Shown here: positions 15,966 through 39,708 of the stretch, piece after piece | How the letters are laid out: each line of letters opens with the position of its first letter | How positions within the stretch are numbered: position 1 is the stretch's first letter | From: a virus | IMG/VR virus record: IMGVR_UViG_3300006033_000003 | Length of the DNA: 60,871 nt | Direction: 5' to 3' (one strand) | Position numbers and translations under genes: made by a program | The notes under the pieces: generated by a model | Told to the model about the DNA's origin: nothing | Database searches by the model: none | The model's input: the letters and a program-made list of their open reading frames with translations, nothing else

Positions 15966-16805
15966 ATGGCTACCAGCAAGAAAACCGAAACCAGCACCGA
16001 AGTCGCAGTGGCGAACCAGAACACCGCCATGGCGGAGTATGGCGCATATGCCGACTACGCCGGTGCGGGCTTCGAGAACCAGACCAGCGATGACTACAGC
16101 ATCCCGTTCCTCCAGATTCTGCAGGCCCTCAGCCCGCAGCTCCAGGAGAACGAAAGCCTGCGTCAAGGCATGATCCTCAACACCGTCACGGGCGAAATCT
16201 TCGAGGGCAAGGTGGGCATCGCCTTCGTCCCCGCAACGACCCAGCACGTGTACGTGGAGTGGAAGCCCCGCGATGCGGGCGGTGGCTTCGTGGGCATTCA
16301 CGAGCCGTCCAGCGATCTGGTCCGTCACTGCGTGGCCAACCAAGCCTTCGGTGACTACAAGACCCCGGACGGCAACGAGCTGATTGAGACGTTCTATGTG
16401 TATGGTGTCGCCATCGACGCCGATGAGAACGTGTCGCAAGCCGTCCTGGCCTTCTCCTCCTCGAAGATCAAGAAGTACAAGGGCTGGATGACGAAGGCCA
16501 AGACCATCCAGCTGCCGCTGCCGGATGGCCGCCGCATCCCGGCTCCGCTGTTCGCGCACAAGTACCGCCTCAAGACCGTCTCGGAGAAGAACAACAAGGG
16601 CCAGTTCTTCAACTGGGACATCTCCTTTGACGGCTCCAACGCCCTCGAAGCCCGCCTGCTCCCGGCTGACCCGCTGTTCCAGTCCGCCGTTGCGATCAAG
16701 ACCCTGATCGAGGGTGGCAAGGCCCGCGCCGCCTATGAGTCTCAGGCTCCCGGCTCCGCTGATGAAGGTGCGCAGGGTGCCGCTGGCGGCAAGCCCGTGT
16801 TCTGA
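15966..16805 (+). CDS. hypothetical protein, possibly ssDNA-binding or recombination-associated
   Basis: 279-aa ORF with an SD (caggag), followed by tandem terminators, which suggests abundant expression. It has a flexible Gly/Ala-rich tail ending ...GGKPVF, reminiscent of SSB-type C-terminal tails. The functional guess is weak. Confidence 0.3.
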   Translation: MATSKKTETSTEVAVANQNTAMAEYGAYADYAGAGFENQTSDDYSIPFLQILQALSPQLQENESLRQGMILNTVTGEIFEGKVGIAFVPATTQHVYVEWKPRDAGGGFVGIHEPSSDLVRHCVANQAFGDYKTPDGNELIETFYVYGVAIDADENVSQAVLAFSSSKIKKYKGWMTKAKTIQLPLPDGRRIPAPLFAHKYRLKTVSEKNNKGQFFNWDISFDGSNALEARLLPADPLFQSAVAIKTLIEGGKARAAYESQAPGSADEGAQGAAGGKPVF

Positions 16806-16827
16806 CCTCTCCCTGAAGGGCAGTTGC

Positions 16828-16885
16828 CCCGGGCTTCTCCTCCCTGGCCCGGGTTTTTGAGGGGGCCTTTGCGCCCCCTCTTTTT
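16828..16885 (+). terminator. tandem rho-independent terminators
   Basis: CCCGGGC-N12-GCCCGGG followed by TTTTT (16828-16858), then GAGGGGGC-N6-GCCCCCTC followed by TTTTT (16859-16885). Confidence 0.8.
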
Positions 16886-16908
16886 GTATCAGAAACGGAG
16901 AACCAAAA

Positions 16909-18117
16909 ATGAACGAAAGCACCAATTGGAGCCCTCAGCAACAGACCGCCTTGGACCGGGTTGGGCGTTGGCTGAAGGCGAAGGACAAGCCCGTGTTTCA
17001 GCTGGCGGGCTTCGCCGGAACCGGCAAGACCACCCTGGCGAAGCACCTGGCCGCAACCGTGAACGGCCCCGTGTACTTCGCCGCCTACACCGGGAAGGCC
17101 GCACACGTCCTCACGAAGTCCGGAGCGACCAACGTGAGCACGATCCACAAGCTCATCTACACGCCCAAGGACAAGTCCCAGCAGCGCCTGAAGGACCTCG
17201 AAGCGGAGCGGGCGAAGCTGCTCACCCACAAGCCTGTCCCGACCACGATGCTGGAGAAGGTCGAAGCCGCGATTCAGGCGGAGAAGATAAATCTGGCCCG
17301 CCCGATGTTCCAGCTCAACAGCGAAAGCCCCTTGTTGGGCGCAGCCCTCCTGGTGGTGGATGAGTATTCGATGATTGACACGCAGATGGGGGAGGACCTG
17401 CTCAGCTTCGGTTGCCCGATCCTTGCGTTGGGCGATCCGGGACAGCTCCCGCCCGTCCAGGGCACGTCCTTCTTCAGCGACAAGCCCGACATCCTCCTCA
17501 CGGAGATTCACCGCCAGGCCCGCGACAACCCCATCATCTGGATGTCGCAGGAGGTCCGCGAAGGCCGCGTGCTCCGCCCCGGTTCCTACGGCAGCAGCCG
17601 CGTGGTGCCCTACCAGCAGCTGCCGCGCGATGAACTCCGGTCTGTAGTCCTATCCACGGACCAGCTCCTGGTTGGCAGGAACGCCACGCGCATCACCTCC
17701 AACAGCCGCGCCCGGGAACTCCTCGGGCGGACAAACGCCCTGCCCCAGGCCGGTGACAAGCTGGTCTGCCTCCGGAACAACCACGAGGTTGGGCTGCTCA
17801 ACGGCCAACTCTGGAAGGCCCGGGCTGATTCCATCTTTGACGGGGACTATGTCCTGCTGGACATCGAAAGCGAAGAAGGGACCAAGGTTGACGTCAGCGC
17901 CCATCCCCACTACTTTCACGGCAACAAGCCGGAGTATTGGGAACGCAAGGACGCGGAGGAGTTTGATTATGGGTATGCCCTCACCGTCCACAAGTCCCAG
18001 GGCTCCCAGTGGAACAACGTCCTGCTGTTCGATGAGTGGTATGGGAAGGACCGCCGGCAGTGGTTGTACACCGCGATCACCCGCGCCGCCGAACGCATCG
18101 ACGTGGTGATGATGTAG
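16909..18117 (+). CDS. RecD/Dda-like SF1 DNA helicase
   Basis: Walker A GFAGTGKTT, Walker B LLVVDEYSMID, GDPGQLPPV, and the C-terminal ALTVHKSQGSQW motif typical of the RecD/AAA_30 + UvrD_C_2 architecture. Confidence 0.85.
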   Translation: MNESTNWSPQQQTALDRVGRWLKAKDKPVFQLAGFAGTGKTTLAKHLAATVNGPVYFAAYTGKAAHVLTKSGATNVSTIHKLIYTPKDKSQQRLKDLEAERAKLLTHKPVPTTMLEKVEAAIQAEKINLARPMFQLNSESPLLGAALLVVDEYSMIDTQMGEDLLSFGCPILALGDPGQLPPVQGTSFFSDKPDILLTEIHRQARDNPIIWMSQEVREGRVLRPGSYGSSRVVPYQQLPRDELRSVVLSTDQLLVGRNATRITSNSRARELLGRTNALPQAGDKLVCLRNNHEVGLLNGQLWKARADSIFDGDYVLLDIESEEGTKVDVSAHPHYFHGNKPEYWERKDAEEFDYGYALTVHKSQGSQWNNVLLFDEWYGKDRRQWLYTAITRAAERIDVVMM

Positions 18118-18139
18118 CCCAACACCCAGGAGTCCAGAT

Positions 18140-20014
18140 ATGATTACTACCCCTTTTCAGCAACTCAACCTTCAGGAGAAAACCAAGATGAATGGTCCAC
18201 AAGTGCCATATTCCCAAGAACTTCACGCACAGAAGTACCGTGGTGAGGGCGAGTCCTTCCGCGAAGCGATGAACCGGATTGCCGCCGCCCTGAAGGACGA
18301 TGACCGCCACTTCGCGGACTTCCGGGACGCCCTTCTGGGCATGCGCTTCCTCCCGGCGGGCCGCATCCAATCCGCGATGGGCTCCACCCGTCAAGTGACC
18401 CCGTACAACTGCTATGTCAGTGGCAAGATCAATGACAGCTTTGTGGACGGGGACGGCTCCATCATGGAACGCGCCGCCGAAGCCGCCGCCACGATGCGTA
18501 TGGGCGGAGGGATTGGCTATGACTTCAGCACGCTCCGTCCGCGTGGCGATCTGATCCGCAAGCTCCAGTCCCACTCCTCCGGCCCGGTCAGCTTCATGCA
18601 CATCTTCGACGCGATCTGCAAGTGCGTGGCCTCCTCCGGCCACCGCCGGGGAGCGCAGATGGGGGTCCTGCGCGTGGATCACCCGGACATCGAGGAGTTC
18701 ATTCACGCGAAGCAACCGGCCCGGGACGTTCAGCCCCTCTGGGATATGGTGGCCGCGCTGCCGGACGGCCCGGAGAAGCAACAACTGATCTTCTCCCTGC
18801 AGAATACCCTGCGCCTGACCGGCTTCAACGTCTCCGTGGCGATCACCGATGAGTTCATGGAAGCCGTTGCCGCTGGCAAGCCCTTCCCGCTGCGCTTCGA
18901 GGGCCGCGTGTACCGTGAAGTGGACGCCCGCGCCCTGTGGGAGTCGATCATGCGCGGAACCTGGGATTGGGCGGAACCCGGGGTGCTGTTCATCGACGCG
19001 ATCAACCGCATGAACAATTTGTGGTACTGCGAGACGATTGCCGCCACGAACCCCTGCGGTGAGCAACCCCTCCCGCCCTACGGTGCCTGCCTCCTGGGCT
19101 CCTTCAACCTGGTCCGCTACATCGTCCGGGACGGCTCCGGCAAGTTCGCCTTCGACTGGGACCAGTACAAGGAGGACATCCCCACCGTGGTTCGCGCCAT
19201 GGACAACGTGGTTGACCGCGCCATCTATCCGCTCCCGCAGCAGAAGAAGGAAGCCCACGACAAGCGCCGCATGGGCCTGGGCATTACCGGCCTGGCCAAC
19301 GCGGGCGAGGCCCTGGGCTTCCTGTACGGTTCCCCGGACTTCCTCCGCTTCGAGGCCCAAGTGCTCGACACTCTGCGTGACGAAACCTACCTGGCCAGCG
19401 CACACATCGCCCGTGACAAGGGCTCCTTCCCTATGTTCGACCGGGAGAAGTACCTGCAGGGTGAGTTCGTCAAGACCCTGCGTGAGGACGTTCGGGACGC
19501 TATCGCCCGCCACGGCATCCGCAACTCTCACCTGACCTCCATCGCCCCGACCGGCACCATCAGCCTCTGCGCTGACAACGTCTCCTCCGGCATTGAGCCT
19601 GTGTTCGCCTACAGCTTCGACCGTACCGTGGTGGAGTTCACCGGCCCCCGCGTGGAGACGGTTCACGACTACGGTGCCCGCGCCTTCGGGGTGAAGGGCA
19701 AGACCTGCGACCGCGTTACCGTCCAGGAGCACGTTGCCGCCCTGACGACCGCCGCCCAGCGTGTGGACAGCGCCGTCAGCAAGACCTGCAACGTGCCCTC
19801 GGACATCTCCTGGGAGGACTTCAAGAACGTGTACGTGAGCGCCTGGGAGGGCGGAGCGAAGGGCTGCACGACCTTCCGCTTGGGCGGGAAGCGCAGCGGC
19901 ATTCTTGTCGCCAAGGACGAAGGGGAGACGGGTGACGCCGGAGAAGCCCAGACGGAGGAACCGGCCAGCCAGTGTCGCATCGACCCGGCCACCGGACGCC
20001 GTGAGTGTGAGTAA
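18140..20014 (+). CDS. nrdJ: ribonucleotide reductase, probably class II (B12-dependent)
   Basis: TNPCGEQPL active-site loop, CLLGSFNL, C-terminal Cys pair (QCRIDPATGRRECE). No ATP-cone and no NrdB-like gene anywhere in the genome. An alternative ATG lies at 18188. Confidence 0.7.
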   Translation: MITTPFQQLNLQEKTKMNGPQVPYSQELHAQKYRGEGESFREAMNRIAAALKDDDRHFADFRDALLGMRFLPAGRIQSAMGSTRQVTPYNCYVSGKINDSFVDGDGSIMERAAEAAATMRMGGGIGYDFSTLRPRGDLIRKLQSHSSGPVSFMHIFDAICKCVASSGHRRGAQMGVLRVDHPDIEEFIHAKQPARDVQPLWDMVAALPDGPEKQQLIFSLQNTLRLTGFNVSVAITDEFMEAVAAGKPFPLRFEGRVYREVDARALWESIMRGTWDWAEPGVLFIDAINRMNNLWYCETIAATNPCGEQPLPPYGACLLGSFNLVRYIVRDGSGKFAFDWDQYKEDIPTVVRAMDNVVDRAIYPLPQQKKEAHDKRRMGLGITGLANAGEALGFLYGSPDFLRFEAQVLDTLRDETYLASAHIARDKGSFPMFDREKYLQGEFVKTLREDVRDAIARHGIRNSHLTSIAPTGTISLCADNVSSGIEPVFAYSFDRTVVEFTGPRVETVHDYGARAFGVKGKTCDRVTVQEHVAALTTAAQRVDSAVSKTCNVPSDISWEDFKNVYVSAWEGGAKGCTTFRLGGKRSGILVAKDEGETGDAGEAQTEEPASQCRIDPATGRRECE

Positions 20015-20023
20015 GTGAAGATT

Positions 20024-20073
20024 GGGCGGACAACTAGGGGTTTTCCCTACCCCAACAAAAAAGTTGTCCGCCC
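20024..20073 (+). terminator. long-stem hairpin after the RNR gene (terminator-like)
   Basis: Perfect 12-bp stem GGGCGGACAACT / AGTTGTCCGCCC around a 26-nt loop with an inner GGGG/CCCC hairpin. A T-rich sequence (actttacttttt) follows. Confidence 0.55.
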
Positions 20074-20076
20074 ACT

Positions 20077-20105
20077 TTACTTTTTCGCATGAATGGCACT
20101 ATACT
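20077..20105 (+). promoter_or_regulatory. promoter candidate, class 1 (TTACTT-N17-TATACT)
   Basis: cTTTACTTTTTCGcatgaatgGCACTATACTTCTTC. Shares the CTTTACTT..GCACTATACTTCTTC frame with 34835 and 40385. Heads the DNA-modification block. Confidence 0.65.
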
Positions 20106-20155
20106 TCTTCTCACGGTCGAACAACGAACCGCAACCCTCAGAAATGGAGCTCATC

Positions 20156-20821
20156 ATGAACACGATCACTTTCAACAACGTCAGCTACACCGAAGCCATC
20201 CTGAACAGCCTGTCCGGCCCCGCGCTGGTTGCCTTGTTCAACGCTGTCTCCGAAGCCCTGAAAACCGGCAAGCCGGTGACCCGCTTCGCTGACAAGAAGT
20301 CCGCCGTCAGCCGTACCTGGAAGCTGCTCGGTCAGCTCCCGGTCGAAGCCCCCGCAGCGGAAGTTGTTGAAGTAGTCGCAGAAGTGGTGACCGCTCCCAG
20401 CGTCCTCTCCAGCTGGGTGAATGGCCTGGTGGCTTCCTCGAAGAAGGAAACCCCTGTGAAAAAGAACGCCAAGCCCCGTGGCACCAACCTGACCCCTCCC
20501 GGCTTCGAGCCGATTGCCTGCCGCGAAGGTTCCAAGCAAGCCCTCCTCCTGGACATGCTGTCCCGCAAGAACGGCTCCACCATGGCCGAACTGATTGATG
20601 CCTTGTCCGGCGGCAACAAGCCTTGGACTGAGGCCACCGTCCGCTCCGGCTTCGGTTGGGACATGAAGCTCAAGGGCTACGGTGTTCACTCCTCCTTCGA
20701 CGCGGACGGCACGGAGCGATTCCACATCGTCCTTCCGGAGTGCGCCAAGGGCATCCCCGCCCACACCCCGCTGAAGGGCAAGGCGAAGGCGGACGCCCGC
20801 CAAGCCAAGCTGGCCGTCTGA
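20156..20821 (+). CDS. hypothetical protein, C-terminal winged-helix-like (DUF3489-like?) region
   Basis: ATG 8 nt after the conserved leader cagaaATGGAG. The C-terminal [36 protein letters not shown] resembles small wHTH domains. First gene after promoter 20077. Confidence 0.35.
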
Positions 20822-20867
20822 CAACAACACGCCCCGGGAAGCCGGGGCCTACACTGAGACTTGTACA

Positions 20868-21746
20868 ATGAGCCGAAACTACCCCCGCCTGGACATCGAG
20901 TCCTTTGGGCGACACCTGATCACCTCTGGGGACCTTGACCCGATCTACACCGCCCTAGTCCGGGCGGAGAAGGCCGGTGACTACTCCATCCCCCAACTCT
21001 GCCGCTGGATGGTCGCATACTGGTGTTACTACAACGCCGCCGTTGCGTCCTTCCTCAGTGAGAAGGAGGGCAATGACTTCTGGCACTGGATGATGGTCGC
21101 AGCAGAAAACGCGGAGGAAACCCCCGTGGGAGGACGCTGGCCACGCGGACATGAGCGCCGCCACTTCCGCGCAGCGATTGCGGTCAACGCTGTATCGTCC
21201 CTCCAGAAGCGGTACGCGGAGCGCCCGGAGAACTTCGTGCTATACGTGGGAGCCCGCGCAACGGAGGAGGAGCGCCTGCCCTTCCGGACCGTCTCGAACC
21301 GCGCCCAGGAGCACAACGGCTTCGGACCGTGGATTGGCTTCAAGATTGCGGACATGATGGACCGCGTGATGGAGGTCCCGGTTGACTTCGACAACGCCGC
21401 CGTGTTCATGTTCAAGGACCCGGAGAAGGCCGCGATGATGCTGTGGCAGCTCCGGGAGGGCCACAAGTACCCGGAGAACGCGAAGCCCAAGCGGGAGGTC
21501 ATCCTGAACGGGGTGGCGCAGTACCTGATTGGGCACTTCGCGGACCTCGAAGCCCCGCCCCTGTCCGACCGTCCGGTGAACATCCAGGAGGTGGAGACGG
21601 TCCTGTGCAAGTGGAAATCCCACATGAATGGACACTACCCCCTCTGGAACGACACCCGGGAGATCAACACCGGACTCGAACCCTGGGCCGCTTCGTGCCC
21701 CGCCGCCCGCGCCTTCCTCCACCACATGCCCAAGGAGCAATCATGA
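20868..21746 (+). CDS. aGPT-pyrophosphorylase-like DNA base hypermodification enzyme (second paralogue)
   Basis: All-helical 292-aa protein. It shares with CDS 24898-25833 the motif G-x-G-P-(W/F)-x7-D ([16 protein letters not shown] versus IGWGPFMAYEVVTDLRH). It sits in an operon with the PLP, radical SAM and kinase genes. Confidence 0.5.
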
Positions 21747-22582
21747 TAGTCAACAACACCCCGCTCGAAGTCCACAACCTCCGGGGCGTCCCCGTCATCG
21801 TCAAGCGTGAGGACCTTTGCGCCCCGCTGCCGGGTCCGTCCTTCAGCAAGATACGGGGCGTGGTGGCCCACATCAAGAACCGCCCTGAACAAGTCATCGG
21901 GGTCCTGGACACCTATCACTCGAAGGCCGGACACGCGGTGGCCTACGTCTGCAACCAACTCGGACGCAAGTGCGTGGACTTCTGGCCCCGCTACAAGAAG
22001 GACGGGAACGCGGACGCCCCGCGCATCCAGCAGCAACGTGCCCGCCAACTGGGGGCGGACCTGGTGGACCTTCCGGCGGGCCGCTCCGCCGTGCTGTACC
22101 ACGGAGCGCGCAAGCGGCTGATGGACGGCTATGCGAACGGGTACTTGATGCCCAACGCCCTGAAGCTGCCGGAGTCGATCACGGAGAACGCTGCGGAAGC
22201 CCTGCGCACCGCTCCGGACCTCCCGGGCGAAGGCACCCTGATTCTGTCCATCAGCTCCGGGACGGTTGCCGCCGGGGTCCTCCTGGGCTTCAAGCAGGCC
22301 GGTATCCTGGACGGGTATGACGTCATTCTGAACATGGGCTACAGCCGCAGTCAGGACTCCACCCGCGCCTACATCGAACGTGCCGCCGGGATTCAGCTGA
22401 CGGAGCGTGTCCGCTTCGTGGATGAGGGCTACAACTACGCGGACGCCGCGCCCAGCAGCGTCTCCGTTCCGTTCCCGTGCAACCCCTACTATGACCAGAA
22501 GGCGTGGAACTGGCTCCAGAAGCCGGAGAACCTCGAACCGCTGGCGGGCAAGCCCATCGTGTTCTGGAACATCGGAGACTGA
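21743..22582 (+). CDS. PLP-dependent enzyme, fold type II (ACC deaminase / TrpB-like)
   Basis: ATGA overlap start; the track ORF 21443 is an upstream extension. VKREDL...PSFSKIRG (candidate PLP lysine) and a phosphate-binding loop [10 protein letters not shown]. Confidence 0.6.
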
Positions 22583-22585
22583 GCC

Positions 22586-22759
22586 ATGGGCTATCCGAAG
22601 GGACGCCAGCGCACGGAGGAGCAGAAGCGTGCGCACTCGGAGCGGATGAAGGGCCGGGTGTTCACGGAGGAGCACCGCCGGAAGATGTCAGAAGCCGCGA
22701 AGGCCCGGTGGGACCGCGCCCGGGGCATCGAACCTCCGGAAAACACTTGTTCCAACTAG
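22586..22759 (+). CDS. 57-aa NUMOD3-repeat DNA-binding mini-protein (not in the ORF track)
   Basis: MGYPKGRQRTEEQKRAHSERMKGRVFTEEHRRKMSEAAKARW carries two NUMOD3-like repeats (G+x2TEEx+x+xSE). These normally form the DNA-binding tail of GIY-YIG/HNH homing endonucleases. No nuclease domain is present. Confidence 0.5.
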   Translation: MGYPKGRQRTEEQKRAHSERMKGRVFTEEHRRKMSEAAKARWDRARGIEPPENTCSN

Positions 22760-22785
22760 ACTTCTTCACACCACCCCTCTATACT
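22758..22785 (+). promoter_or_regulatory. promoter candidate (AGACTTCTTC-N-TATACT)
   Basis: tAGACTTCTTCacaccacccctcTATACTTTTTC, 27 nt upstream of the radical SAM start. Confidence 0.45.
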
Positions 22786-22811
22786 TTTTCAGCTACTTCA
22801 GGAGAATCGAA

Positions 22812-24278
22812 ATGCAAAGTGAACACGACCACAACCAGTGGCTCGAACAGACAACCGGAGAAGAAGCCCAGGAGGCTTACAAGTTCTTCATGCGCCCGGA
22901 CCCGAACCAACGGGAGTTCCTGGGCCCAATCGAGGAGGAGGATGACCCGCTGACCGGCATGCGTGCGAAGTTCCGCATGGCGAAGGTGGGCATGGTCCGC
23001 AACGCCCCCGATGAGTCCAAGAAGGAGGTGAAGGTGTACCTGGGCTTCAATGACAAGACCTACGTGCCCCATATCCGCATCCCGAACGCGAAGCCGCTGC
23101 AGGGTTGGTACCAGGACAAGCACAACGACAAGCAGGGGAGCCGTCCGCGTCCTTGCTTCACGGAAGCCGTCCTGACGGAGCCATATGGGGGCTACTGCAC
23201 CGTGGGTTGTGCCTTCTGCTACGTCAACAGCGGGTTCCGGGGTTATCGGGGCTCTGGCCTCATCAGCGTGCCGATGAACTACGGTGACCAGGTCCGCGCC
23301 CAGCTGTCCAAGGTCCATACTTCCGCCGCCGGTTACTTCTCCAGCTTCACGGACCCGTTCCTGCCGATTGAGGAGGTGTACCACAACACGCAACGCGGGG
23401 CGGAGGAGTTCGACCGCGTGGGCCTTCCCGTGTTCTTCCTCTCCCGCCTTCACTACCCTGATTGGGCCTTCGACCTCCTGAAGCGCAACCGCTACAGCTA
23501 TGCCCAGAAGTCCCTCAACACGGGCAACGATGCGGATTGGCACAAGCTGTCCCCCGGGGCTATCTCCCTTCAAGCCCACCTGGACGAAATCCGGGAGCTG
23601 CGCCGCCACGGCATCTACACCTCCATTCAGGTGAACCCGGTGGTGCCCGGGATTACCCCGCACGAGGACATCCGCCGCTTGTTTGAGCGCCTGGCCGAAG
23701 TCGGCAACAACCACGTCATCGTCAAGTTCGTGGAAGCCGGGTACAGCTGGGCACCCGCGATGGTGGAGCGCCTTCACAAGCGGTTCGGAGCGGAGCGGGC
23801 CGGGAAGTTCCAGGCCCTGTTCACGGAGAACCAGGCCGGAGCCCAGCGCACAATCGTCCAATCTTACCGCATCGAAGCCCACACACTGTACCAGAAGTGG
23901 GCCACCGAACTCGGGATGACCTACGCCACGTGCTATGAGTACGCGAAGGGCGAAGGCGGTGGTGGTTGGCAGAGTGTGGGCCGTCAATTCACGACCGCTG
24001 ACCAGTGCCACGGCCAGAAGGTCCCGATGTTCACGCGCAAGGACTTGTCCGACAACTTCGAGGAGGTGGGAGCCTGCCCGCCGTCCGGTTGTCTGTACTG
24101 CGCCCCGGAGGATGCGAAGCCGGAAGACAAGCTGAAAGGCCGTTGTGGTTCGGAAGTGTTCGGAGCCGCCCGCGCCCTTCGCGCCCCTGACTTCAAGTAC
24201 GTGGCGGGACCCGATGAGGAACAGCCCGACCGTATCAAGAAGAAGCTGCAAGCCATCAAGGTGGTGGTCCAGCAATAA
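22812..24278 (+). CDS. radical SAM enzyme (spore-photoproduct-lyase / DNA-photolyase-like)
   Basis: Cx3Cx2C cluster CTVGCAFCY near residue 135. 488 aa, SplB-like context (GGYCTVGCAFCYVNSG...ISVPMNY). Confidence 0.75.
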   Translation: MQSEHDHNQWLEQTTGEEAQEAYKFFMRPDPNQREFLGPIEEEDDPLTGMRAKFRMAKVGMVRNAPDESKKEVKVYLGFNDKTYVPHIRIPNAKPLQGWYQDKHNDKQGSRPRPCFTEAVLTEPYGGYCTVGCAFCYVNSGFRGYRGSGLISVPMNYGDQVRAQLSKVHTSAAGYFSSFTDPFLPIEEVYHNTQRGAEEFDRVGLPVFFLSRLHYPDWAFDLLKRNRYSYAQKSLNTGNDADWHKLSPGAISLQAHLDEIRELRRHGIYTSIQVNPVVPGITPHEDIRRLFERLAEVGNNHVIVKFVEAGYSWAPAMVERLHKRFGAERAGKFQALFTENQAGAQRTIVQSYRIEAHTLYQKWATELGMTYATCYEYAKGEGGGGWQSVGRQFTTADQCHGQKVPMFTRKDLSDNFEEVGACPPSGCLYCAPEDAKPEDKLKGRCGSEVFGAARALRAPDFKYVAGPDEEQPDRIKKKLQAIKVVVQQ

Positions 24279-24331
24279 CCCCCGGGCGGGGCTCCGGCTC
24301 CGCCCACCCTCAACTGAAATGGAGAATCAAG

Positions 24332-24886
24332 ATGAAGTACATCAACGTGCGGGGCTGTAACGGCTCCGGCAAGACTACCCTGCTGCGCAGCCTCGCAACC
24401 GATTCGCTGTGCCGCGTCTCGAACGCGAACATGGGCGACCTTCACAAGCCCATCCCCGTCACCTACTGCCCGGGCGGCATCGCCATCATCGGTGACTACA
24501 CGCCCGCCGCCGCCGGTTCTACCACCGCTGGCCTGGACCGTATCAAGACCCAAGCCGCCGCCAAGGCCGTCATCGAGTTCGTGGGCAAGGACCCGGGGGT
24601 GAAGGCCGTCCTGTTCGAGGGCGTGGTGGTCAGCACCATCTACGGTCCGTGGCAGGAGTGGTCGAAGGCGAACGGCGGGATGATCTGGGCCTTCCTGGAC
24701 ACCCCGCTCCAGACCTGCCTGGAGCGCATCCAGGTTCGCAACGGCGGGAAGCCGATCAAGGAGGACCAGGTGGCCGACAAGCACCGCACCATCGCCCGGG
24801 TCCGCGACAAGGCCCTGGCCGACAAGGAAACCGTGCTGGACCTGCCCTGGCAGGACGCCCGCGCCGCCCTCCTGGCCGTCATCTGA
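24332..24886 (+). CDS. P-loop kinase, candidate 5-hydroxymethyl-dU DNA kinase
   Basis: N-terminal Walker A VRGCNGSGKTTLL. 184 aa. Lies directly between the radical SAM gene and the aGPT-Pplase-like gene. Confidence 0.55.
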   Translation: MKYINVRGCNGSGKTTLLRSLATDSLCRVSNANMGDLHKPIPVTYCPGGIAIIGDYTPAAAGSTTAGLDRIKTQAAAKAVIEFVGKDPGVKAVLFEGVVVSTIYGPWQEWSKANGGMIWAFLDTPLQTCLERIQVRNGGKPIKEDQVADKHRTIARVRDKALADKETVLDLPWQDARAALLAVI

Positions 24887-24897
24887 GGAACCCAGAC

Positions 24898-25833
24898 ATG
24901 AGCACCCCGCGTCTCAACGACATCGCCGCCTTCATGAAGGCCCGGCACGACATCTACCTGGACCGCAAGGCCGGGAAGCCCGGACCCTGGACCACTGACC
25001 CGGTCCTCCGTGATGGGCGGTTCTGCAACATCTTCCGCGAACTGGACACGGTCACGATCTGGGTTGACCAGAACATCCGGAAGCCCTACGCGGGCCACGA
25101 ACATCTTTGGCTGATGCTGGCGCTGGCCCGCTACATCAACTGGCCCGATACCCTGGCCACGCTCATCGAAGCGCCCGGGGCCTGGCCCAGCCATGAGGAC
25201 TTCGCGCCGGAGAACGTCACGGAGGTTCTTGCCGCCAAGGCTTCCTTCGGGGACAAGGTGTACACCGGGGCGTACATGATCCGGGCGGAGTCCGACACCG
25301 CCAAGGAGTGGTACAGCTGGAGCAAGCACCGCTACATCGCGGAAATCGTGATTGGGCGTCTGTGGGAGGACCGCGCCGCATTCGTGGAAGTCCTCGAAGG
25401 CAAGCGCCAAGCCTCCCTGGAGCAGGTCTGGAAGTTGTTTCAGGAGCCCCGCTACATCGGTTGGGGGCCGTTCATGGCCTATGAAGTGGTGACGGACCTC
25501 CGCCACACCCGCTACCTTCGTCACGCCCCGGACATCTATTCATGGGCCAACGCCGGTCCCGGAGCGATCCGGGGACTGAATCGCCTGTATGGGCGGAACC
25601 TCGAAGCGAAGCCCCGCCCGGAGCAGACCAACCGTGAAATGTACGATTTGAGGCTTGACCTCTGTGTGGTGGACGATCCGGGATTCATGCAGACTTTTGG
25701 CCCGTTGGGTCCCCGCTTCGAGATGAGGGACGTGGAGCACTCCCTGTGTGAGTTCGACAAGTATGAACGGGTGCGCCTGGGCGAAGGGAAGATGCGCACG
25801 AAGTATGACTGGCGCAAGGCAACAACCATCTGA
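24898..25833 (+). CDS. aGPT-pyrophosphorylase clade-1-like DNA base hypermodification enzyme
   Basis: The ATG at 24898 begins MSTPRLNDIAAFMKARHDIYL..KPGPWTTDPVLRDGRFCNIFRELDTVT, the N-terminal signature I associate with this family, followed by GWGPFMAYEVVTDL. The track ORF 24649 is an upstream extension. Confidence 0.65.
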   Translation: MSTPRLNDIAAFMKARHDIYLDRKAGKPGPWTTDPVLRDGRFCNIFRELDTVTIWVDQNIRKPYAGHEHLWLMLALARYINWPDTLATLIEAPGAWPSHEDFAPENVTEVLAAKASFGDKVYTGAYMIRAESDTAKEWYSWSKHRYIAEIVIGRLWEDRAAFVEVLEGKRQASLEQVWKLFQEPRYIGWGPFMAYEVVTDLRHTRYLRHAPDIYSWANAGPGAIRGLNRLYGRNLEAKPRPEQTNREMYDLRLDLCVVDDPGFMQTFGPLGPRFEMRDVEHSLCEFDKYERVRLGEGKMRTKYDWRKATTI

Positions 25834-25848
25834 GAAACGGAGAACGAA

Positions 25849-26409
25849 ATGGCAACTGTTCGCATCAACACTTACATGAAGGAGACGGTGGTGCGCCGTC
25901 TCATGAATCACGCCTTCGAGGAGCGGAAGAAGGCCCTGCAGGCTGAGTGGTACGCCCTCGGGGACGCCGTGTACAAGGACCTGTACCCGGAGGAAGTCCT
26001 GACCAAGATGAAGGCGATGCCCGCCGGGTTCCTTCCGATGGACGATGACGTGCGCGTGTCCTTCGGGGGAGACTTCACCCGCGTGTACTTCGGGGAGAAC
26101 CGCCTGCTGTCCTATGGGCACCGCTCGAACGCCGCCCGTGTGTATGACAGCAAGCACCCCCTGTCCGTCCGTCATGACGCCTACCGCAAGGCCAATGACC
26201 AGCTGACGGAGGAGGAGCGCAAGGCGGAGTCCTCCACCAAGGCGATCCTGGACAGCGTCACCACGCTCAAGAAGCTGATTGAGACCTGGCCGGAGGTGGA
26301 GCCCTTCGTTGAGGACTTCAAACAAACCGCCACGGGCCGCTATCTCCCCGCGCTGCCCGTCCAAGACCTGAACGCCCGCCTGGGCCTGCCCAAGAAGGAA
26401 GCAAAATGA
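25849..26409 (+). CDS. hypothetical protein, co-operonic with the modification genes (Nmad-type?)
   Basis: 186-aa ORF with an SD (acggagaacgaa), wedged between the Pplase-like and TS-like genes. No catalytic motif recognised. Confidence 0.5.
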   Translation: MATVRINTYMKETVVRRLMNHAFEERKKALQAEWYALGDAVYKDLYPEEVLTKMKAMPAGFLPMDDDVRVSFGGDFTRVYFGENRLLSYGHRSNAARVYDSKHPLSVRHDAYRKANDQLTEEERKAESSTKAILDSVTTLKKLIETWPEVEPFVEDFKQTATGRYLPALPVQDLNARLGLPKKEAK

Positions 26410-27458
26410 AAGTCATCAAAGCACGCAACGCCCACCAAGCCCTTCCCGAAGCCCTGTATCAGCTGGCCAACGAAGGGGTGGAGCGCGACAGCCGCAATGG
26501 TCCCGTCCGGATGTTCCCGGAGCCAGTGACCACGGTGTACCTCCGCCCTGCGGAGCGGGTGATGTTCTGGGCGGAGCGGGACTGCAACCCCTTCTTCCAC
26601 CTGATCGAAAGCCTCTGGATGCTGGCGGGACGCCGTGATGTGGACTACGTGGCCCGCTACGTGAAGCGCATGCGCACCTACTCGGATGACGGGGTGACGT
26701 TCCACGGGGCTTACGGGTTCCGCTGGCGCAGGTTCTTCTTCGATGACCAACTGCCCAAGATCATCGACGCCCTGAAGGCGAACCCGGATGACCGCCGCCA
26801 AGTCCTGTCGATGTGGGACACGGACGCGGACCTGGGCCGTCAAGGCAAGGACCTCCCCTGCAACCTACAGGCCGTGTTCCAAGTGGCTTCGGACGGACGC
26901 CTGGACATGATGGTGACGAACCGCTCCAACGACATGATCTGGGGAGCCTACGGGGCCAACGCCGTCCACTTCAGCTACCTCCACGAGTACGTGGCCCGCT
27001 CCGTGGGCGTCCCGCAGGGCATCTACCGCCAAGTGTCCGCCAACTTCCACGCCTACAAGGACGTGCTGGAGAAGGTTGCGCCTCTGGCGGACTACGCCCC
27101 GGACCCGCTGACCGGAGCGCCCACCCCGGACCCCTACGCCAGTGCCGCCGTGGAGCCCTTCCCGCTGATGACCCTGGGCCGGTATGAATGGGACGCGGAG
27201 CTGAAGATGTTCATGGAAGAACCGGACGCCCTGGGCTTCCGTGACCCCTTCTTCCGCCGTGTCGCCATCCCGATGTCCCGGGCTCACGCCGCCTATCAGC
27301 GCAAGGACTTCGACGGGGCAATGGACCTCCTCCGGGACGTGGCCGCGTCCGATTGGAAGCTGGCCGCAATCGAGTGGATTGAGCGCCGCCGCGCCGCGCA
27401 CGAAGCCCGCAAGGCACGTGCGATGGATGACGGGGTGGACTACGGTACAGGGGAGTGA
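26406..27458 (+). CDS. thymidylate synthase homologue, predicted dUMP hydroxymethylase
   Basis: Aligns by eye to ThyA: DRRQVLSMWD (RRxxxSxWN), DLPCNLQAVFQV (catalytic Cys), NRSNDMIWGAYGANAVHF (QRSxDxxLGxPFN, with the uracil-specifying Asn kept), ANFHAY (GDxHxY). Confidence 0.7.
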   Translation: MKVIKARNAHQALPEALYQLANEGVERDSRNGPVRMFPEPVTTVYLRPAERVMFWAERDCNPFFHLIESLWMLAGRRDVDYVARYVKRMRTYSDDGVTFHGAYGFRWRRFFFDDQLPKIIDALKANPDDRRQVLSMWDTDADLGRQGKDLPCNLQAVFQVASDGRLDMMVTNRSNDMIWGAYGANAVHFSYLHEYVARSVGVPQGIYRQVSANFHAYKDVLEKVAPLADYAPDPLTGAPTPDPYASAAVEPFPLMTLGRYEWDAELKMFMEEPDALGFRDPFFRRVAIPMSRAHAAYQRKDFDGAMDLLRDVAASDWKLAAIEWIERRRAAHEARKARAMDDGVDYGTGE

Positions 27459-27460
27459 TC

Positions 27461-28093
27461 ATGGGCAGCATAGCATCCAAAATCCGTGACGCGGAGCTGG
27501 AAGCGGAAGCTGCCCGGGAGCGGGTTCAGCGCCCGCTCCTGACGCGCCTGGCCGCTACCCGGGAAGCCGGGACCGTCCGCCGCTGCCATATTGTCCCCCA
27601 CCACGGCCAATACAATATCGCCCAACACAGCTACGGGGCTGTCAGCCTCCTCCTGCTGCTCCACCCGAAGCCGTCCCTGAAGTTGATCAAGGCCGTCCAG
27701 TGGCATGACGTTGCGGAACGCTGGTTGGGCGATGTCCCGGCCCCCGCGAAGTGGACGCACACGGAACTGGGCGAAGCCTATGAGCGGGCGGAGGAGGAGC
27801 TGCTGAAGCGCCTTGGGCTGTTCGGGGAACTGACGGACCTCGAAGTGGCCTGGTTGAAGGCCGTGGACACCCTCGAACTCTGGCTGTGGTGCCGGGAAGA
27901 AGAAGCCCTGGGCAACGCCGCCGTCACGCCGATGCGCCGCGCATGCGAGAAGGTGACGGAGAAGCACCAGCTGGAGGGTAGCCTGCCCGCGATTGCCGCG
28001 CAGCTCTATGATGCTCTGCGTCAATACCCCCACAAGCGTCTCTCGGACTTCTTCGAGGACGTGGAACCCTACCTGCAAGGAGAAACCAAATGA
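27461..28093 (+). CDS. HD-domain phosphohydrolase (YfbR-like 5-prime deoxynucleotidase)
   Basis: HxxxxAQHS ... WHDVAERWLGDVPAPAK matches the H...HD...D pattern of YfbR-type dNMP nucleotidases. An alternative GTG start lies at 27455. Confidence 0.6.
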   Translation: MGSIASKIRDAELEAEAARERVQRPLLTRLAATREAGTVRRCHIVPHHGQYNIAQHSYGAVSLLLLLHPKPSLKLIKAVQWHDVAERWLGDVPAPAKWTHTELGEAYERAEEELLKRLGLFGELTDLEVAWLKAVDTLELWLWCREEEALGNAAVTPMRRACEKVTEKHQLEGSLPAIAAQLYDALRQYPHKRLSDFFEDVEPYLQGETK

Positions 28094-28470
28094 GCGTGAA
28101 CGAGAAGCAAGTTGGCGGTGAGCACTACCGCTCGAAGGTCCAGCACTGGGACTATGTGGAGCTGAACGGGCTCCGCTACACCGAAGGCTGCGCCACGAAG
28201 TACGCCACCCGGAACCGGAAGAAGGGCCAACAGCGCCAGGACCTGGAGAAGGCGATTCACTACGTGGAGAAGGTCCAGGACCTCCATCGCAACGGCTACC
28301 TCCACCCCCGGACGGCTCCGATGGTTGTCAGCCTGGTGGACTTCGTTGAGTCGAATGAGCTGACGGAGAACGAAGCCGAAGTGGTGCGCATCTTGACCTA
28401 CTGGGAAGCGGACCCGGAGCTGACCCGCGCCCTCGAAATCCTCCGCGAAATGATCGAGGAGCTGAACTGA
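28090..28470 (+). CDS. DUF3310-like protein
   Basis: GGEHYRSKVQHWDYVE..EGCATKYATRNRKKG..QDLEKAIHYVEK matches my memory of the DUF3310 pattern (HY..iE..KY..R...K..DLeKA.hY). Confidence 0.45.
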   Translation: MSVNEKQVGGEHYRSKVQHWDYVELNGLRYTEGCATKYATRNRKKGQQRQDLEKAIHYVEKVQDLHRNGYLHPRTAPMVVSLVDFVESNELTENEAEVVRILTYWEADPELTRALEILREMIEELN

Positions 28471-30443
28471 TGCAGCAGCCCCTGTTCACTGTAGCGGAAA
28501 GCTACTGGCAACCCCCGAAGCTGGACAGCCTCCCCTCCTGGGAGGGGGCGAAGCGGGTGGCCGTGGACTGCGAAACCCGGGACCCGGACCTGCGCAAGCT
28601 GGGACCGGGAGCGGGACGCCGCCCGAACAGCTACATCACCGGCATCAGCTTCGCAATCGAGGACGGCCCGGGGGCATATCTCCCGATCCGCCATGACGGC
28701 GGGGACAACCTCCCGGTGGAAGCCGTCCTGCGCTACCTTCGGGACCAGGCCGCTGTCTTCAAGGGCGACATCGTGGGGGCCAACCTCCCGTATGACCTGG
28801 ACTTCCTGGCGGGAGACGGGATTGAATTCAAGTCCGCCCGCTTCTTCCGGGACATCCAGATTGCTGACCCGCTGATCTGCGAGTTGTACGACAGCTACAG
28901 CATGCAGTCGATTGCCCAGCGTTGGGGCTTCTCCGGCAAGGATGAGGAGCTGCTGCGCCTTGCCGCCCAGGACTACAAGATTGACCCGAAGAAGGACATG
29001 TGGATGCTCCCGGCCCGCTTCGTGGGGGCCTACGCGGAGGAGGACACCCGCCTGCCGCTGAACATCCTGCGCCGCCAGGAGCGGGAGATTGATGAGCAGA
29101 ACCTCTGGGACGTGTACAACCTGGAGTCGAAGTTGCTGCCGGTCCTGACGAAGCTGCGCCGCCGGGGCGTCCGCATCGACCTGGACCGACTGGACATGAT
29201 CGACCGTTGGGCACTGGAGCAGGAGACGGAAGCCCTGGCGCAGGTGAAACATCTCACGGGCATCGCCGTCCGCGTGGGCGATGTCTGGAAGCCGGAGACG
29301 ATTGCGCCCGCGCTGGAGCACATCGGGGTCAAGCTGAAAAAGACCTCCCAAGGCAAGCCCAACATCGACAAGGAGCTGCTGGCCAGCATCAAGCACCCCG
29401 TGGCGGACGCCCTCGAACGCGCCCGGAAGGTGAACAAGCTGCGCACGACCTTCGGGCAATCCGTCCGGGACCACATGGTGAACGGAAGGCTGCACTGTAC
29501 CTTCAACCAGCTGCGCCGCCAGAAGGACGATGAAGCGGACGGAACCGCCGGAGCCGCCTATGGGCGACTGTCCTGCGAGCACCCGAACCTTCAGCAGCAA
29601 CCGGCCCGCGATGAGTTCGCCACGATGTGGCGGGCCATCTACCTCCCGGAGGAAGGGGAGCAGTGGGCGTCCAACGACTATTCCCAGCAGGAGCCCCGGA
29701 TGGCGGTGCACTATGCGTGTCTGGCCCGCGATCTGATTGGTCACAACGCCTGGGAGAAGGCGATTGAGGCCCGTGACAAGTACCGGAACGACCCGAACAC
29801 TGACAACCACCAGATGATGGCGGACATGGCGGGGATCAAGCGCAAGGACGCCAAGGAAATCTACTTGGGCCTGTCCTACGGGATGGGCGGAGCGAAGATG
29901 TGCCGGAAGCTGGGCCTGCCGACGATGACGGCGGTGCGCGGACCTCGGGGCCAGACCTTCGACGTAAACAGCGAAGAAGGAGCCCGACTGGCGGAGCAGG
30001 GAGCCCGCCGGTGGGAAGCCGCTGGGCCGGAAGGGCAAGCCCTCCTGGACACCTTCGACCGCCGCGTGCCCTTCATCAAGAAGCTGGCCAAGGCTTGCGA
30101 AGCCCGGGCGAAGGCGGTGGGCTACATCACCACGTTGTCCGGACGCCGCTGCCGCTTCCCGAAGGACGCTGAGGGCAACTTTGACTGGACTCACAAGGGC
30201 CTGAACCGCCTGATCCAGGGCTCCTCCGCTGACCAGACCAAGATGGCGATGGTGGCCTGCGCGGAGGCCGGGTTGGACATCATCATCCAGGTTCACGATG
30301 AAATCGCCTTCAGCGTGAAGTCGAAGGACGAAGCCGAACACGCCGCCCACATCATGCGTACCTGCACGCCGCTCGAACTCCCTTCAAAAGTTGATGTGGA
30401 GATGGGCGTGAGCTGGGGTCATTCCATGGGGTTCGAGGGATGA
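28470..30443 (+). CDS. family A DNA polymerase with 3-prime-5-prime exonuclease domain
   Basis: Exo I VAVDCETRD. Motif A DYSQQEPRM, motif B RKDAKEIYLGLSYGMG, motif C IIQVHDEIAF. Confidence 0.9.
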   Translation: MQQPLFTVAESYWQPPKLDSLPSWEGAKRVAVDCETRDPDLRKLGPGAGRRPNSYITGISFAIEDGPGAYLPIRHDGGDNLPVEAVLRYLRDQAAVFKGDIVGANLPYDLDFLAGDGIEFKSARFFRDIQIADPLICELYDSYSMQSIAQRWGFSGKDEELLRLAAQDYKIDPKKDMWMLPARFVGAYAEEDTRLPLNILRRQEREIDEQNLWDVYNLESKLLPVLTKLRRRGVRIDLDRLDMIDRWALEQETEALAQVKHLTGIAVRVGDVWKPETIAPALEHIGVKLKKTSQGKPNIDKELLASIKHPVADALERARKVNKLRTTFGQSVRDHMVNGRLHCTFNQLRRQKDDEADGTAGAAYGRLSCEHPNLQQQPARDEFATMWRAIYLPEEGEQWASNDYSQQEPRMAVHYACLARDLIGHNAWEKAIEARDKYRNDPNTDNHQMMADMAGIKRKDAKEIYLGLSYGMGGAKMCRKLGLPTMTAVRGPRGQTFDVNSEEGARLAEQGARRWEAAGPEGQALLDTFDRRVPFIKKLAKACEARAKAVGYITTLSGRRCRFPKDAEGNFDWTHKGLNRLIQGSSADQTKMAMVACAEAGLDIIIQVHDEIAFSVKSKDEAEHAAHIMRTCTPLELPSKVDVEMGVSWGHSMGFEG

Positions 30444-30679
30444 ACCTGTCAGAAGCCGAACGGGAAGCCCTCCGTTGGGCCCAAAACGGGGAGCTGGTGA
30501 GCCGCATCCCGGACCGGACGGAGCGGGGCCTGTTTGGGCAAGTCGAAGCCCCGGGCCGCGCTGTGTTCCGAAAGCTGATGAAGCTGGGGTTGCTGTTCGA
30601 GACGGAGGAGGACGGGGACTGGACGCCCGCCTTGGGCCTGACGAAGGAAGGCGAAACCCTGCTGAAGGAGTTGGAATGA
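30440..30679 (+). CDS. hypothetical protein
   Basis: 79-aa ORF, ATGA-coupled to the polymerase gene. Confidence 0.5.
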   Translation: MNLSEAEREALRWAQNGELVSRIPDRTERGLFGQVEAPGRAVFRKLMKLGLLFETEEDGDWTPALGLTKEGETLLKELE

Positions 30680-30990
30680 AATTTTGTTACCAATGTGACG
30701 CGCAGGTCACGTATTTGTTCGCGGACGCACGCTGCGCAAAGTGCACCCGCTTGACCCCGGAGGAAGTCCGGGGAGAACCGAAGGAGAACGACATGCGTGA
30801 GCGCCAAGAAAACACGGTGGACATCGAGTGCCAAGTGAAGCGGGAGACGGAGAAGGCCCTGCTGATCGACCACGGCGGTGAGCAGGAGGTCTGGATGCCC
30901 AAGTCCCAGGTCCGCAACGTGGTGAAGGGTCCGAAGTTCGTGACCCTGACGGTCACGGAGTGGATTGCCAACGAGAAGGGGCTGCTGTGA
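30676..30990 (+). CDS. zinc-ribbon protein
   Basis: ATGA-coupled start. CYQC...CAKC N-terminal ribbon, then a small beta-rich domain. Confidence 0.5.
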   Translation: MKFCYQCDAQVTYLFADARCAKCTRLTPEEVRGEPKENDMRERQENTVDIECQVKRETEKALLIDHGGEQEVWMPKSQVRNVVKGPKFVTLTVTEWIANEKGLL

Positions 30991-31451
30991 TCACGCGCCA
31001 AGAAAAGTGGGACATGCGCTATGTCCGCCTGGCCCAGGAGGTCGCAACCTGGAGCAAGGACCCGTCCACAAAGGTGGGAGCCGTCCTGGTTCGCCCGAAC
31101 AACTCCGTGGCGTCCACCGGCTTCAACGGCTTCCCGCCCGGACACAACGATCACCCGAAGTTGTACGCGGACCGCGCCTACAAGTATCAGCACGTTGTAC
31201 ATGCTGAAATCAACGCCATCGAGTTCCTGACAGGGGAGACGCCGCACGGGTTCACGCTCTATACTTCTTTTCCCTGCTGTCCGAACTGTATGGAAGCCGC
31301 CGCGAAGGCGGGGGTGACCACTGTCGTGTTCCCTCCCATCCGGTTCGAGGGCAAGGACCAACAGTGGATTGACGAGTGGAACGCCCGCATTGACCAGTCA
31401 CTCGAAGTGGCCCGCCGCTTCGACATCAAGGTGAGGTGGGTGGGTGTCTGA
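30987..31451 (+). CDS. dCMP deaminase
   Basis: HAEINAI and PCCPNCMEAAAKAGV zinc-binding motifs. VGAVLV. GTGA-coupled start. Confidence 0.85.
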   Translation: MITRQEKWDMRYVRLAQEVATWSKDPSTKVGAVLVRPNNSVASTGFNGFPPGHNDHPKLYADRAYKYQHVVHAEINAIEFLTGETPHGFTLYTSFPCCPNCMEAAAKAGVTTVVFPPIRFEGKDQQWIDEWNARIDQSLEVARRFDIKVRWVGV

Positions 31452-31842
31452 AGCCGCGATGTGGGACGCCCTCCGCCCGGTGATCAAGCACCTTGATCCC
31501 GTGCGCGTGGAGAACCCCGCTGGGCCGGGGACTCCGGACGTCAACTACATCGAGGGTTGGGTGGAGCTGAAATATGCGGAGCAGTGGCCCCCACGGGGCG
31601 GACCGCTTCGGATTGATCACTTCACCCAACAGCAACGGGTCTGGCTCACCCAACGCCGGCATGCCGGCGGGCGGGCCTTCCTTCTCCTGAAGGTTGGCGA
31701 GAATGAATGGTTGCTGTTCGACGGAGCGGTGGCCGCGAAGGTCCTGGGCCACGTGGAGCAGGACAAATTGTACCGGGCGTGCCTGGCCCGCTGGACCAGG
31801 AAGCCCAAGACTGAGGAGATTTGTAGATGGCTGCAGAACTGA
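31444..31842 (+). CDS. VRR-NUC / PD-(D/E)xK nuclease
   Basis: GTPDVNYIEGWVELKY (D...ExK) followed by FTQQQRVWL...GGRAFLLL, the VRR-NUC pattern. Confidence 0.6.
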   Translation: MSEAAMWDALRPVIKHLDPVRVENPAGPGTPDVNYIEGWVELKYAEQWPPRGGPLRIDHFTQQQRVWLTQRRHAGGRAFLLLKVGENEWLLFDGAVAAKVLGHVEQDKLYRACLARWTRKPKTEEICRWLQN

Positions 31843-39689: not shown

Positions 39690-39708
39690 CAACTTTTGGC
39701 ACTATACT
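39677..39708 (+). promoter_or_regulatory. promoter candidate, class 2 (GGCTTCCC-N18-TATACT)
   Basis: gGGCTTCCCGctgacaacttttggcaCTATACTTCTTT. The G of GGCTTCCC lies exactly 26 nt before TATACT, as at 12821, 14954 and 53559. Confidence 0.55.

Follow-up and report, generated by a model that had tools for sequence, protein, structure and literature searches.

A probable thymidine hypermodification cassette, orthologous to that of phage M6, in an M6/YuA-like viral genome

The closest described counterpart of the locus considered here is the thymidine hypermodification pathway of phage M6, which has been reconstituted in vitro step by step (Lee et al., NAR 2021/22, PMC8989533). In that account the M6 kinase gp54 converts 5-hydroxymethyl-2'-deoxyuridine (5-hmdU) in DNA into 5-phosphomethyl-dU (5-PmdU), and gp51, a protein of the aGPT-Pplase2 type, acts as a glycine:DNA transferase that forms N-alpha-glycinylthymidine (N-alpha-GlyT, 315 Da) in a reaction that depends on a conserved Cys with a Glu close beside it and passes through an exocyclic methylene intermediate. 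The radical S-adenosylmethionine (SAM) enzyme gp53 is an isomerase that shifts the linkage from N to C-alpha, and gp52, a pyridoxal phosphate (PLP)-dependent decarboxylase with a predicted Schiff-base Lys36, accepts only the isomerised product and yields 5-(2-aminoethyl)-2'-deoxyuridine (5-NedU, 271 Da); gp52 acts once the isomerase has exposed a primary amine. The same account places gp55 in the lysate mix and finds it dispensable for N-alpha-GlyT formation (PMC8989533). The finished base replaces ~30% of M6 thymidines (PMC5889632); the active site of the PaMx11 glycinyltransferase is known from crystal structures that contain DNA and glycine (PMC11472151), and a structure of the YuA Pplase2 protein comes from a 2026 paper (PMC13458397). 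Here we analyse positions 20077-28093 of the viral record IMGVR_UViG_3300006033_000003, a stretch of 60,871 nucleotides (~61 kb, 63% G+C; hereafter the window), and posit that this block very probably serves an M6/YuA-like siphophage as its thymidine hypermodification cassette, which would place 5-NedU at part of its thymine positions.

The case begins with orthology. In reciprocal BLAST, the proteins encoded between 20156 and 28093 pair one-to-one with M6 gp49, gp51-gp56, gp58 and gp59 in unchanged order, so that the block is syntenic with and orthologous to this set; one-to-one matches extend beyond it to gp61 (28090) and gp62 (28470). In the M6 record, gp49, which encodes a helix-turn-helix (HTH) protein, and gp50-gp62, the last being the DNA polymerase, all run in one direction. 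Identities of the block proteins to M6 range from 61 to 86%, apart from the Nmad5 protein (38%). The window has the M6-type order, in which genes for an AADT-type transferase, a PLP enzyme, a radical SAM enzyme, a kinase, an HMUDK_hel/aGPT-Pplase clade 1 protein (Pplase1), Nmad5 (a variable element), a hydroxymethylase and an HD-domain protein follow one another upstream of DNA polymerase A. The same cassette is found in M6-like phages (PMC9476957), and the annotations of phages AN14 and SN1 name the M6-type genes Pplase, PLP, radical SAM, kinase, Pplase and thymidylate synthase (TS)-like. No tblastn match in the window was obtained for M6 gp47, gp48, gp50, gp57 or gp60. In M6, gp47 and gp48 sit between the ribonucleotide reductase gene and the HTH gene (M6 locus 1283-1937; window equivalent 20014-20156), and the AN14 counterpart of gp48 carries a uracil-DNA glycosylase annotation.

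A first-pass annotation, made by a model from the letters and a list of open reading frames (ORFs), had proposed an M6-type post-replicative thymidine hypermodification cluster with 5-(2-aminoethyl)-dU as the conservative expectation, a proposal that orthology, synteny and catalytic residues bear out. All ten ORFs that it listed are present on the + strand at the coordinates it gave (Table 1), and Pfam profile searches agree with each of its family calls. Its placement of the block directly upstream of the DNA polymerase does not hold: the HD gene is separated by a 126-aa DUF3310 gene (28090-28470) from the polymerase gene, which starts at 28470.

Nearly all catalytic and glycine-binding residues that were checked are conserved in the post-replicative enzymes, so 5-NedU would be the expected base. 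The predicted transferase (20868) scores 152.7 bits against the ADDT profile PF18724 (gathering score 26.2), matches PDB entry 25qc_A at 4.6e-180 and PaMx11 gp46 (8z2m) at 4.3e-92, and is ~55% identical to the latter, glycine-using enzyme. It keeps 11 of the 12 active-site residues mapped from PaMx11 gp46, among them E243, T244 and C247, which form the metal and catalytic triad, and D24, W155 (gp46 W146) and K159 (gp46 K150), which bind glycine; conservation of the latter three makes glycine the expected co-substrate. The lone active-site change, K261 to N, is common to M6 gp51. The PLP enzyme, encoded by the adjoining gene (21743), reaches 41.3 bits against PALP (gathering score 35) and keeps the Lys36 of M6 gp52 within SFSKIRG; the radical SAM enzyme (22812) keeps CTVGCAFC, an instance of CxxxCxxC, and all C-terminal cysteines of gp53, which accords with a second Cys-rich cluster site; and the kinase (24332), at 66.2 bits against PF18748 (gathering score 27), keeps the Walker A motif GCNGSGKTT of gp54. 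PDB sequence searches with the PLP and radical SAM proteins gave no match. The first-pass annotation had left open what a fold-type II PLP enzyme does in such a block, a point that PMC8989533 answers, M6 gp52 being a decarboxylase that acts on C-alpha-glycinylthymidine (C-alpha-GlyT). Its suggestion that the final base could be new finds no support, given that the orthologous pathway has been solved (PMC8989533) and that structures of close homologues exist (8z2m and 25qc).

The route that we envisage starts from the nucleotide pool, where the dCMP deaminase (30960) and the ribonucleotide reductase (18140), whose genes flank the block, would feed dUMP, and the TS-like enzyme (26406) would convert dUMP into 5-hmdUMP. 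The HD phosphohydrolase (27461) would bias the pool, and the phage DNA polymerase (28470) would use 5-hmdUTP to put 5-hmdU into DNA. The post-replicative steps that follow have been shown for the M6 orthologues and are inferred here from 73-86% identity and from conserved catalytic residues. The kinase would phosphorylate 5-hmdU in DNA to 5-PmdU; Cys247 and Glu243 of the transferase would then expel the phosphate via an exocyclic methylene intermediate, to which the alpha-amine of glycine would be added, giving N-alpha-GlyT. The radical SAM enzyme would convert this into C-alpha-GlyT, exposing the primary amine, and the PLP enzyme, acting through Lys36, would decarboxylate C-alpha-GlyT to 5-NedU, which we hold with considerable confidence to be the product. 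The modification would protect the phage DNA against restriction endonucleases, and resistance to many type II enzymes is expected. An altered nanopore signal is expected at thymine positions.

Table 1. Genes and signals of the block and its flanks, with the evidence for each assignment
Feature	Coordinates	Strand	Evidence
Ribonucleotide reductase, M6 gp46 orthologue, upstream neighbour, would supply deoxynucleoside diphosphates	18140..20014	+	Pfam Ribonuc_red_lgC 6e-107; 86% to compared part of M6 gp46
Strong RNA hairpin straight after the reductase stop codon, then T-rich tract; terminator-like block boundary	20015..20080	+	dG -36 kcal/mol, z -6.7; 0/200 shuffles folded as well; inverted repeat I1
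Promoter-like bipartite motif CTTTACTTTTTC-N12-CTATACTTCTTC, heads block	20075..20110	+	sigma70-like TTTACT / 18 nt / TATACT
DUF3489 winged-helix protein, M6 gp49 orthologue	20156..20821	+	Pfam DUF3489 8.6e-08; phrog_7790 1.1e-73; 61% to gp49
Predicted glycine:DNA transferase (formerly aGPT-Pplase clade 2), M6 gp51 orthologue	20868..21746	+	Pfam ADDT PF18724 1.7e-44; 86% to gp51
Predicted fold-type II PLP decarboxylase of C-alpha-GlyT, M6 gp52 orthologue	21743..22582	+	Pfam PALP 1.5e-10; 73% to gp52
57-aa NUMOD3 ORF	22586..22759	+	Pfam NUMOD3 9e-04, just under gathering score; PHROG homing-endonuclease families
Second full copy of promoter-like bipartite motif, directly upstream of radical SAM gene	22756..22790	+	repeat family D3
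Predicted SPL-like radical SAM N-alpha-GlyT to C-alpha-GlyT isomerase, M6 gp53 orthologue	22812..24278	+	Pfam Radical_SAM 1.3e-05; CTVGCAFC; 76% to gp53
Predicted 5-hydroxymethyluracil DNA kinase (5-HMUDK, P-loop), M6 gp54 orthologue	24332..24886	+	Pfam HMUDK_HMUD1 PF18748 3.6e-18; 83% to gp54
HMUDK_hel / aGPT-Pplase clade 1 protein (Pplase1), M6 gp55 orthologue	24898..25833	+	Pfam PF18723 6.5e-54; 72% to gp55
Nmad5 family protein, M6 gp56 counterpart	25849..26409	+	Pfam Nmad5 PF18757 1.2e-31; 38% to gp56
TS-superfamily protein, predicted dUMP hydroxymethylase, M6 gp58 orthologue	26406..27458	+	Pfam Thymidylat_synt 1.9e-21; 78% to gp58
HD-domain YfbR-like deoxynucleotide phosphohydrolase, M6 gp59 orthologue	27461..28093 (start also read as 27455)	+	Pfam YfbR-like 7.7e-08, HD_3 3e-05; 74% to gp59
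DUF3310 protein, 126 aa, M6 gp61 orthologue	28090..28470	+	Pfam DUF3310 1.7e-06; 76% to gp61
Family A DNA polymerase, M6 gp62 orthologue	28470..30443	+	86% to gp62; PF00476 on orthologue in contig L003
dCMP deaminase	30960..31451	+	Pfam dCMP_cyt_deam_1 2.3e-18

Several observations weigh against this scheme. Chemistry is unreadable from sequence, and, with 24-27% divergence between the radical SAM and PLP enzymes and the M6 proteins that were assayed, a change of product is conceivable; the Radical_SAM match of the former (25.9 bits) falls under the gathering score of 29.5, with CTVGCAFC present, as does the NUMOD3 match of the 22586 ORF (9e-04) under its own; the part of kinase partner that we give to Pplase1 below is inference only, its M6 orthologue being dispensable for N-alpha-GlyT in lysates and its fold having no significant solved relative; and the dUMP hydroxymethylase of M6, gp58, was assigned by homology, with no assay found in the available text of Lee et al. 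2018 and 2021/22. In one rival reading the TS homologue would be a conventional thymidylate synthase and the cluster, lacking phage-made 5-hmdU, would be inactive or work on another substrate. The Pfam family of the 26406 protein is indeed Thymidylat_synt, and the catalytic Cys (DLPCN) and uracil-specifying Asn that the first-pass annotation had noted are ThyA features as well. The protein nonetheless falls far under all seven NCBIfam ThyA equivalog cut-offs (84.4 bits at best against 174.55, and 70.2 against 327), and its best PDB sequence match is the CMP 5-hydroxymethylase MilA (3.5e-17), in an alignment that spans residues 46-301 and takes in the C-terminal extension, whereas the ThyA matches are weaker and confined to the core. 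The Asn stands where the cytosine-specific MilA has Asp, which supports a uracil-specific hydroxymethylase. The 26406 protein is, moreover, 78% identical to gp58 of M6, itself a phage with a 5-hmdU-derived base in its DNA, and a plain ThyA would leave the dedicated 5-hmdU DNA kinase with nothing to act on; we find this alternative scarcely credible. A second possibility is that the same scaffold makes another final base, either because the transferase takes a different amino acid or amine or because the radical SAM and PLP enzymes tailor its product differently. AADT homologues of other phages do use serine, putrescine or 1,3-diaminopropane (PMC13458397 and PMC8989533), the PLP and radical SAM enzymes share no more than 73% and 76% identity with their M6 counterparts, and the cassette is a gene-flux hot spot. 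Against this, all three glycine-contacting residues of PaMx11 gp46 (D24, W and K) are kept in a transferase 86% identical to M6 gp51, the radical SAM/PLP pair is the M6-specific one, and the block contains no added tailoring enzyme, so that we judge a different base improbable and retain 5-NedU.

The second pyrophosphorylase-like protein (24898, Pplase1) raises a question of its own. Both it and the transferase do belong to the aGPT-Pplase families (PF18723, formerly aGPT-Pplase1, and PF18724), and the first-pass annotation had asked why two such paralogues are present. The question is partly settled, in that the clade 2 protein corresponds to the glycine:DNA transferase characterised in M6 (PMC8989533); the clade 1 protein belongs to another Pfam family. 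The designation as paralogues finds no support here, resemblance between the two proteins not being demonstrable by BLASTP (E = 1.8) or by hhalign of a 99-sequence Pplase1 profile against the window transferase (probability <1%). Significant similarity of Pplase1 to the AADT family (PF18724) was sought and not found: only 17-22 residues around the Cys motif could be aligned, without significance in either program, and Pfam assigns PF18723 only. Among 50%-identity representatives, Pplase1 homologues make up 3551 clusters at E <= 0.001. Across 99 aligned members with 34-55% identity to the query, Cys284, Lys288, Asp212, Arg16, Asp50 and Arg78 are invariant, Glu285 is 99% conserved and a G-P-G-x-x-R-G hairpin is near-invariant. 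The AlphaFold2 model is all-alpha and confident (predicted local distance difference test score, pLDDT, 94.4). Foldseek found no match for it in the PDB at E <= 0.001, the best being OGG1-type helix-hairpin-helix (HhH) glycosylases (E 0.12, TM 0.29), and the PDB sequence search likewise gave no match. The family looks like one with an uncharacterised and probably enzymatic fold that has no solved relative.

Our best guess is that Pplase1 would work alongside the kinase as a partner that binds DNA and depends on its Cys. A more active part could be imagined, in which it is itself a Cys-dependent DNA base enzyme that acts on 5-PmdU or 5-hmdU rather than a passive kinase appendage, and that, for example, (i) sets which 5-hmdU sites are phosphorylated or modified or (ii) turns unmodified 5-hmdU into thymine, a route that Lee et al. 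(PNAS 2018) describe as unknown in such phages. The conserved Cys284, Glu285 and Lys288 would suit such an enzyme, as would the confidently modelled all-alpha fold with its hairpin, whose top, non-significant matches are HhH glycosylases, and the local motif VEHSLCEF resembles the catalytic motif VETVLCKW of the transferase. This last resemblance, however, is not significant, as the BLASTP and hhalign values above attest; no transferase structure, 8z2m included, stands among the 50 best Foldseek matches listed for the model; and none of the reconstituted M6 steps needed gp55 (PMC8989533). Kinase fusions were sought in seven long proteins of the Pplase1 family, where only HMUDK_hel and one weak HhH-GPD match were found. 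Pfam curators regard PF18723 as a helical domain of the kinase, and SP10 presumably carries a fusion of kinase and HMUDK_hel. On SP10 gp186, PMC8989533 mentions only a C-terminal deletion that leaves the kinase domain alone. An active base enzyme strikes us as a tentative and rather unlikely alternative; if true, it would apply to all M6-like phages and not only to this one. We keep to the kinase partner as the working assignment.

As judged by its nearest matches, the window belongs to the M6/YuA-like siphophage group, as a new member that had not been deposited. Megablast with the block and with a 24.5-kb structural region matched only Pseudomonas aeruginosa Yuavirus-type phages and their relatives (M6, YuA, Rocky, PC1, Aergia, SN1 and Bordetella phages) at ~80-81% identity over 46-77% of the query, and no deposited phage came nearer than that in these searches. 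Closer relatives exist in metagenomes: contigs L003 (JGI 3300015608, Ga0182413_103362) and L004 (ENA ERZ27282949) share ~93% nucleotide identity with positions 16000-33000 of the window and 88-98% protein identity across the cassette, and a 6.7-kb ENA contig codes for a Pplase1 protein 98% identical to the 24898 protein. L003 and L004 share the cassette, including the 57-aa NUMOD3 ORF, and differ in lacking the Nmad5 gene and in carrying genes that the window does not have, namely a 195-aa ORF with no family match, a 68-aa ORF, a gene of the 3'-phosphoadenosine 5'-phosphosulfate reductase family just before the polymerase gene, and two N6/N4 DNA methyltransferase genes; these extra genes may represent further DNA-modification functions. 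In L003 they lie at 5070-5657, 7493-7699, 13001-13804 and 17070-18757. Comparison with these near relatives shows Nmad5 to be dispensable and the cassette to be a hot spot where small genes insert and decay, leaving the Pplase1 and DUF3489 proteins as its remaining unknowns.

Three co-operonic proteins had been left without assignment in the first-pass annotation, and two of them can now be placed. The 186-aa protein at 25849, listed there as unknown, belongs to the Nmad5 family and is the most variable product of the cassette, sharing 54-55% identity with the type found in YuA and Bordetella phages and only 38-40% with the M6 type. In the 93%-identical metagenome contigs it is missing, and the TS homologue comes straight after the Pplase1 gene (L003 10945-10961); being both variable and absent there, Nmad5 is an accessory gene rather than a core step. 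Its model (pLDDT 83.5), in which a pair of long helices surrounds a small sheet, found no match in the PDB, and in BFVD it is matched solely by Nmad5 proteins of numerous unrelated phages. Nmad5 homologues occur also in Shiga toxin (Stx)-converting, Vibrio and other phages. The sole functional report found is of a Tmn-escape mutation in a Dhillonvirus nmad5, and it does not define a biochemical role. The ORF at 22586-22759 looks like a relic of a small NUMOD3+HNH homing endonuclease that stands outside the pathway: phage FBPa53 has in the same slot (FBPa53 locus 4001-4414) a 137-aa NUMOD3+HNH protein, to whose N-terminal part the window ORF corresponds, and a profile scan of the ORF found the NUMOD3 part and no HNH nuclease domain. 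A pathway component in this position was ruled out on these grounds, together with the absence of the ORF from M6. Decayed as it looks, the ORF is yet 95% conserved in L003 and L004. The third protein, at 20156, had been called winged-HTH-like, in keeping with its membership of the DUF3489 winged-helix family and its retention in M6 as gp49; it is possibly a DNA-binding or regulatory protein and is counted with Nmad5 among the accessory genes of the block. PADLOC, run on the six proteins of the block and its borders that are least characterised, returned no match.

The block had also been described as headed by one promoter. A promoter-like element does stand at its head, and a second one lies within it, so that there are two rather than one (20075-20110 and 22756-22790). 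The bipartite motif, cTTTACTTCTTC-N12-CTATACTTCTTC, gives 12 half-site matches in the window, on the + strand only, against 0.72 expected, at 12846, 14964, 20075/20099, 22756/22779, 31259, 34833/34857, 39702 and 40383/40407. Almost all copies precede a ribosome-binding site and a start codon, in most cases by 25-45 nt and with a site of the form cagaaa(a)ggag; the copy at 31259 is inside the dCMP deaminase ORF. The recurrent motif is probably the phage's own conserved set of early or middle promoters. An inverted repeat, AAAAAAGTTGT...ACAACTTTT, similar to the hairpin at 20015-20080, precedes the half-site at 39702 (about 39660-39700), and the two pairs of hairpin and motif look like terminator-promoter modules.

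The window adds one more divergent genome, ~80% identical to M6, to a well-characterised family of DNA-hypermodifying phages, whose M6-like members of this kind have mostly Pseudomonas hosts. Its cluster is, by the comparisons above, a close orthologue of an experimentally solved and already well understood pathway; it raises no new question of DNA chemistry, and the gaps that surround Pplase1, Nmad5 and DUF3489 belong to the M6-like group as a whole and are not peculiar to the window. With the M6 cluster the window shares the order and direction of the genes ahead of the DNA polymerase, the catalytic residues that were checked and the expected product; it differs in its nucleotide sequence, which is only ~80% identical, in the extra 57-aa NUMOD3 ORF between the PLP and radical SAM genes, and in an Nmad5 protein of the YuA type (54-55% identity, against 38% to M6 gp56). 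The PaMx11 cluster for 5-acetylaminomethyl-2'-deoxyuridine (5-AcNmdU; gp46-gp49) has the first two post-replicative steps in common with the window, the 5-HMUDK kinase and the glycine:DNA transferase, and tailors N-alpha-GlyT by a flavin-dependent lyase and an acetyltransferase, in place of which the window has the radical SAM isomerase and the PLP decarboxylase. Farther away, ViI (Salmonella), PhiW-14 (Delftia), SP10 (Bacillus) and SH-Ab 15599 (Acinetobacter) follow the same logic, in which a dUMP hydroxymethylase provides 5-hmdU for DNA and a 5-HMUDK kinase and an AADT/Pplase2 group transfer act upon it, but they employ serine, putrescine, glutamate and 1,3-diaminopropane as nucleophiles, possess different tailoring enzymes or none, and show no synteny with the window.

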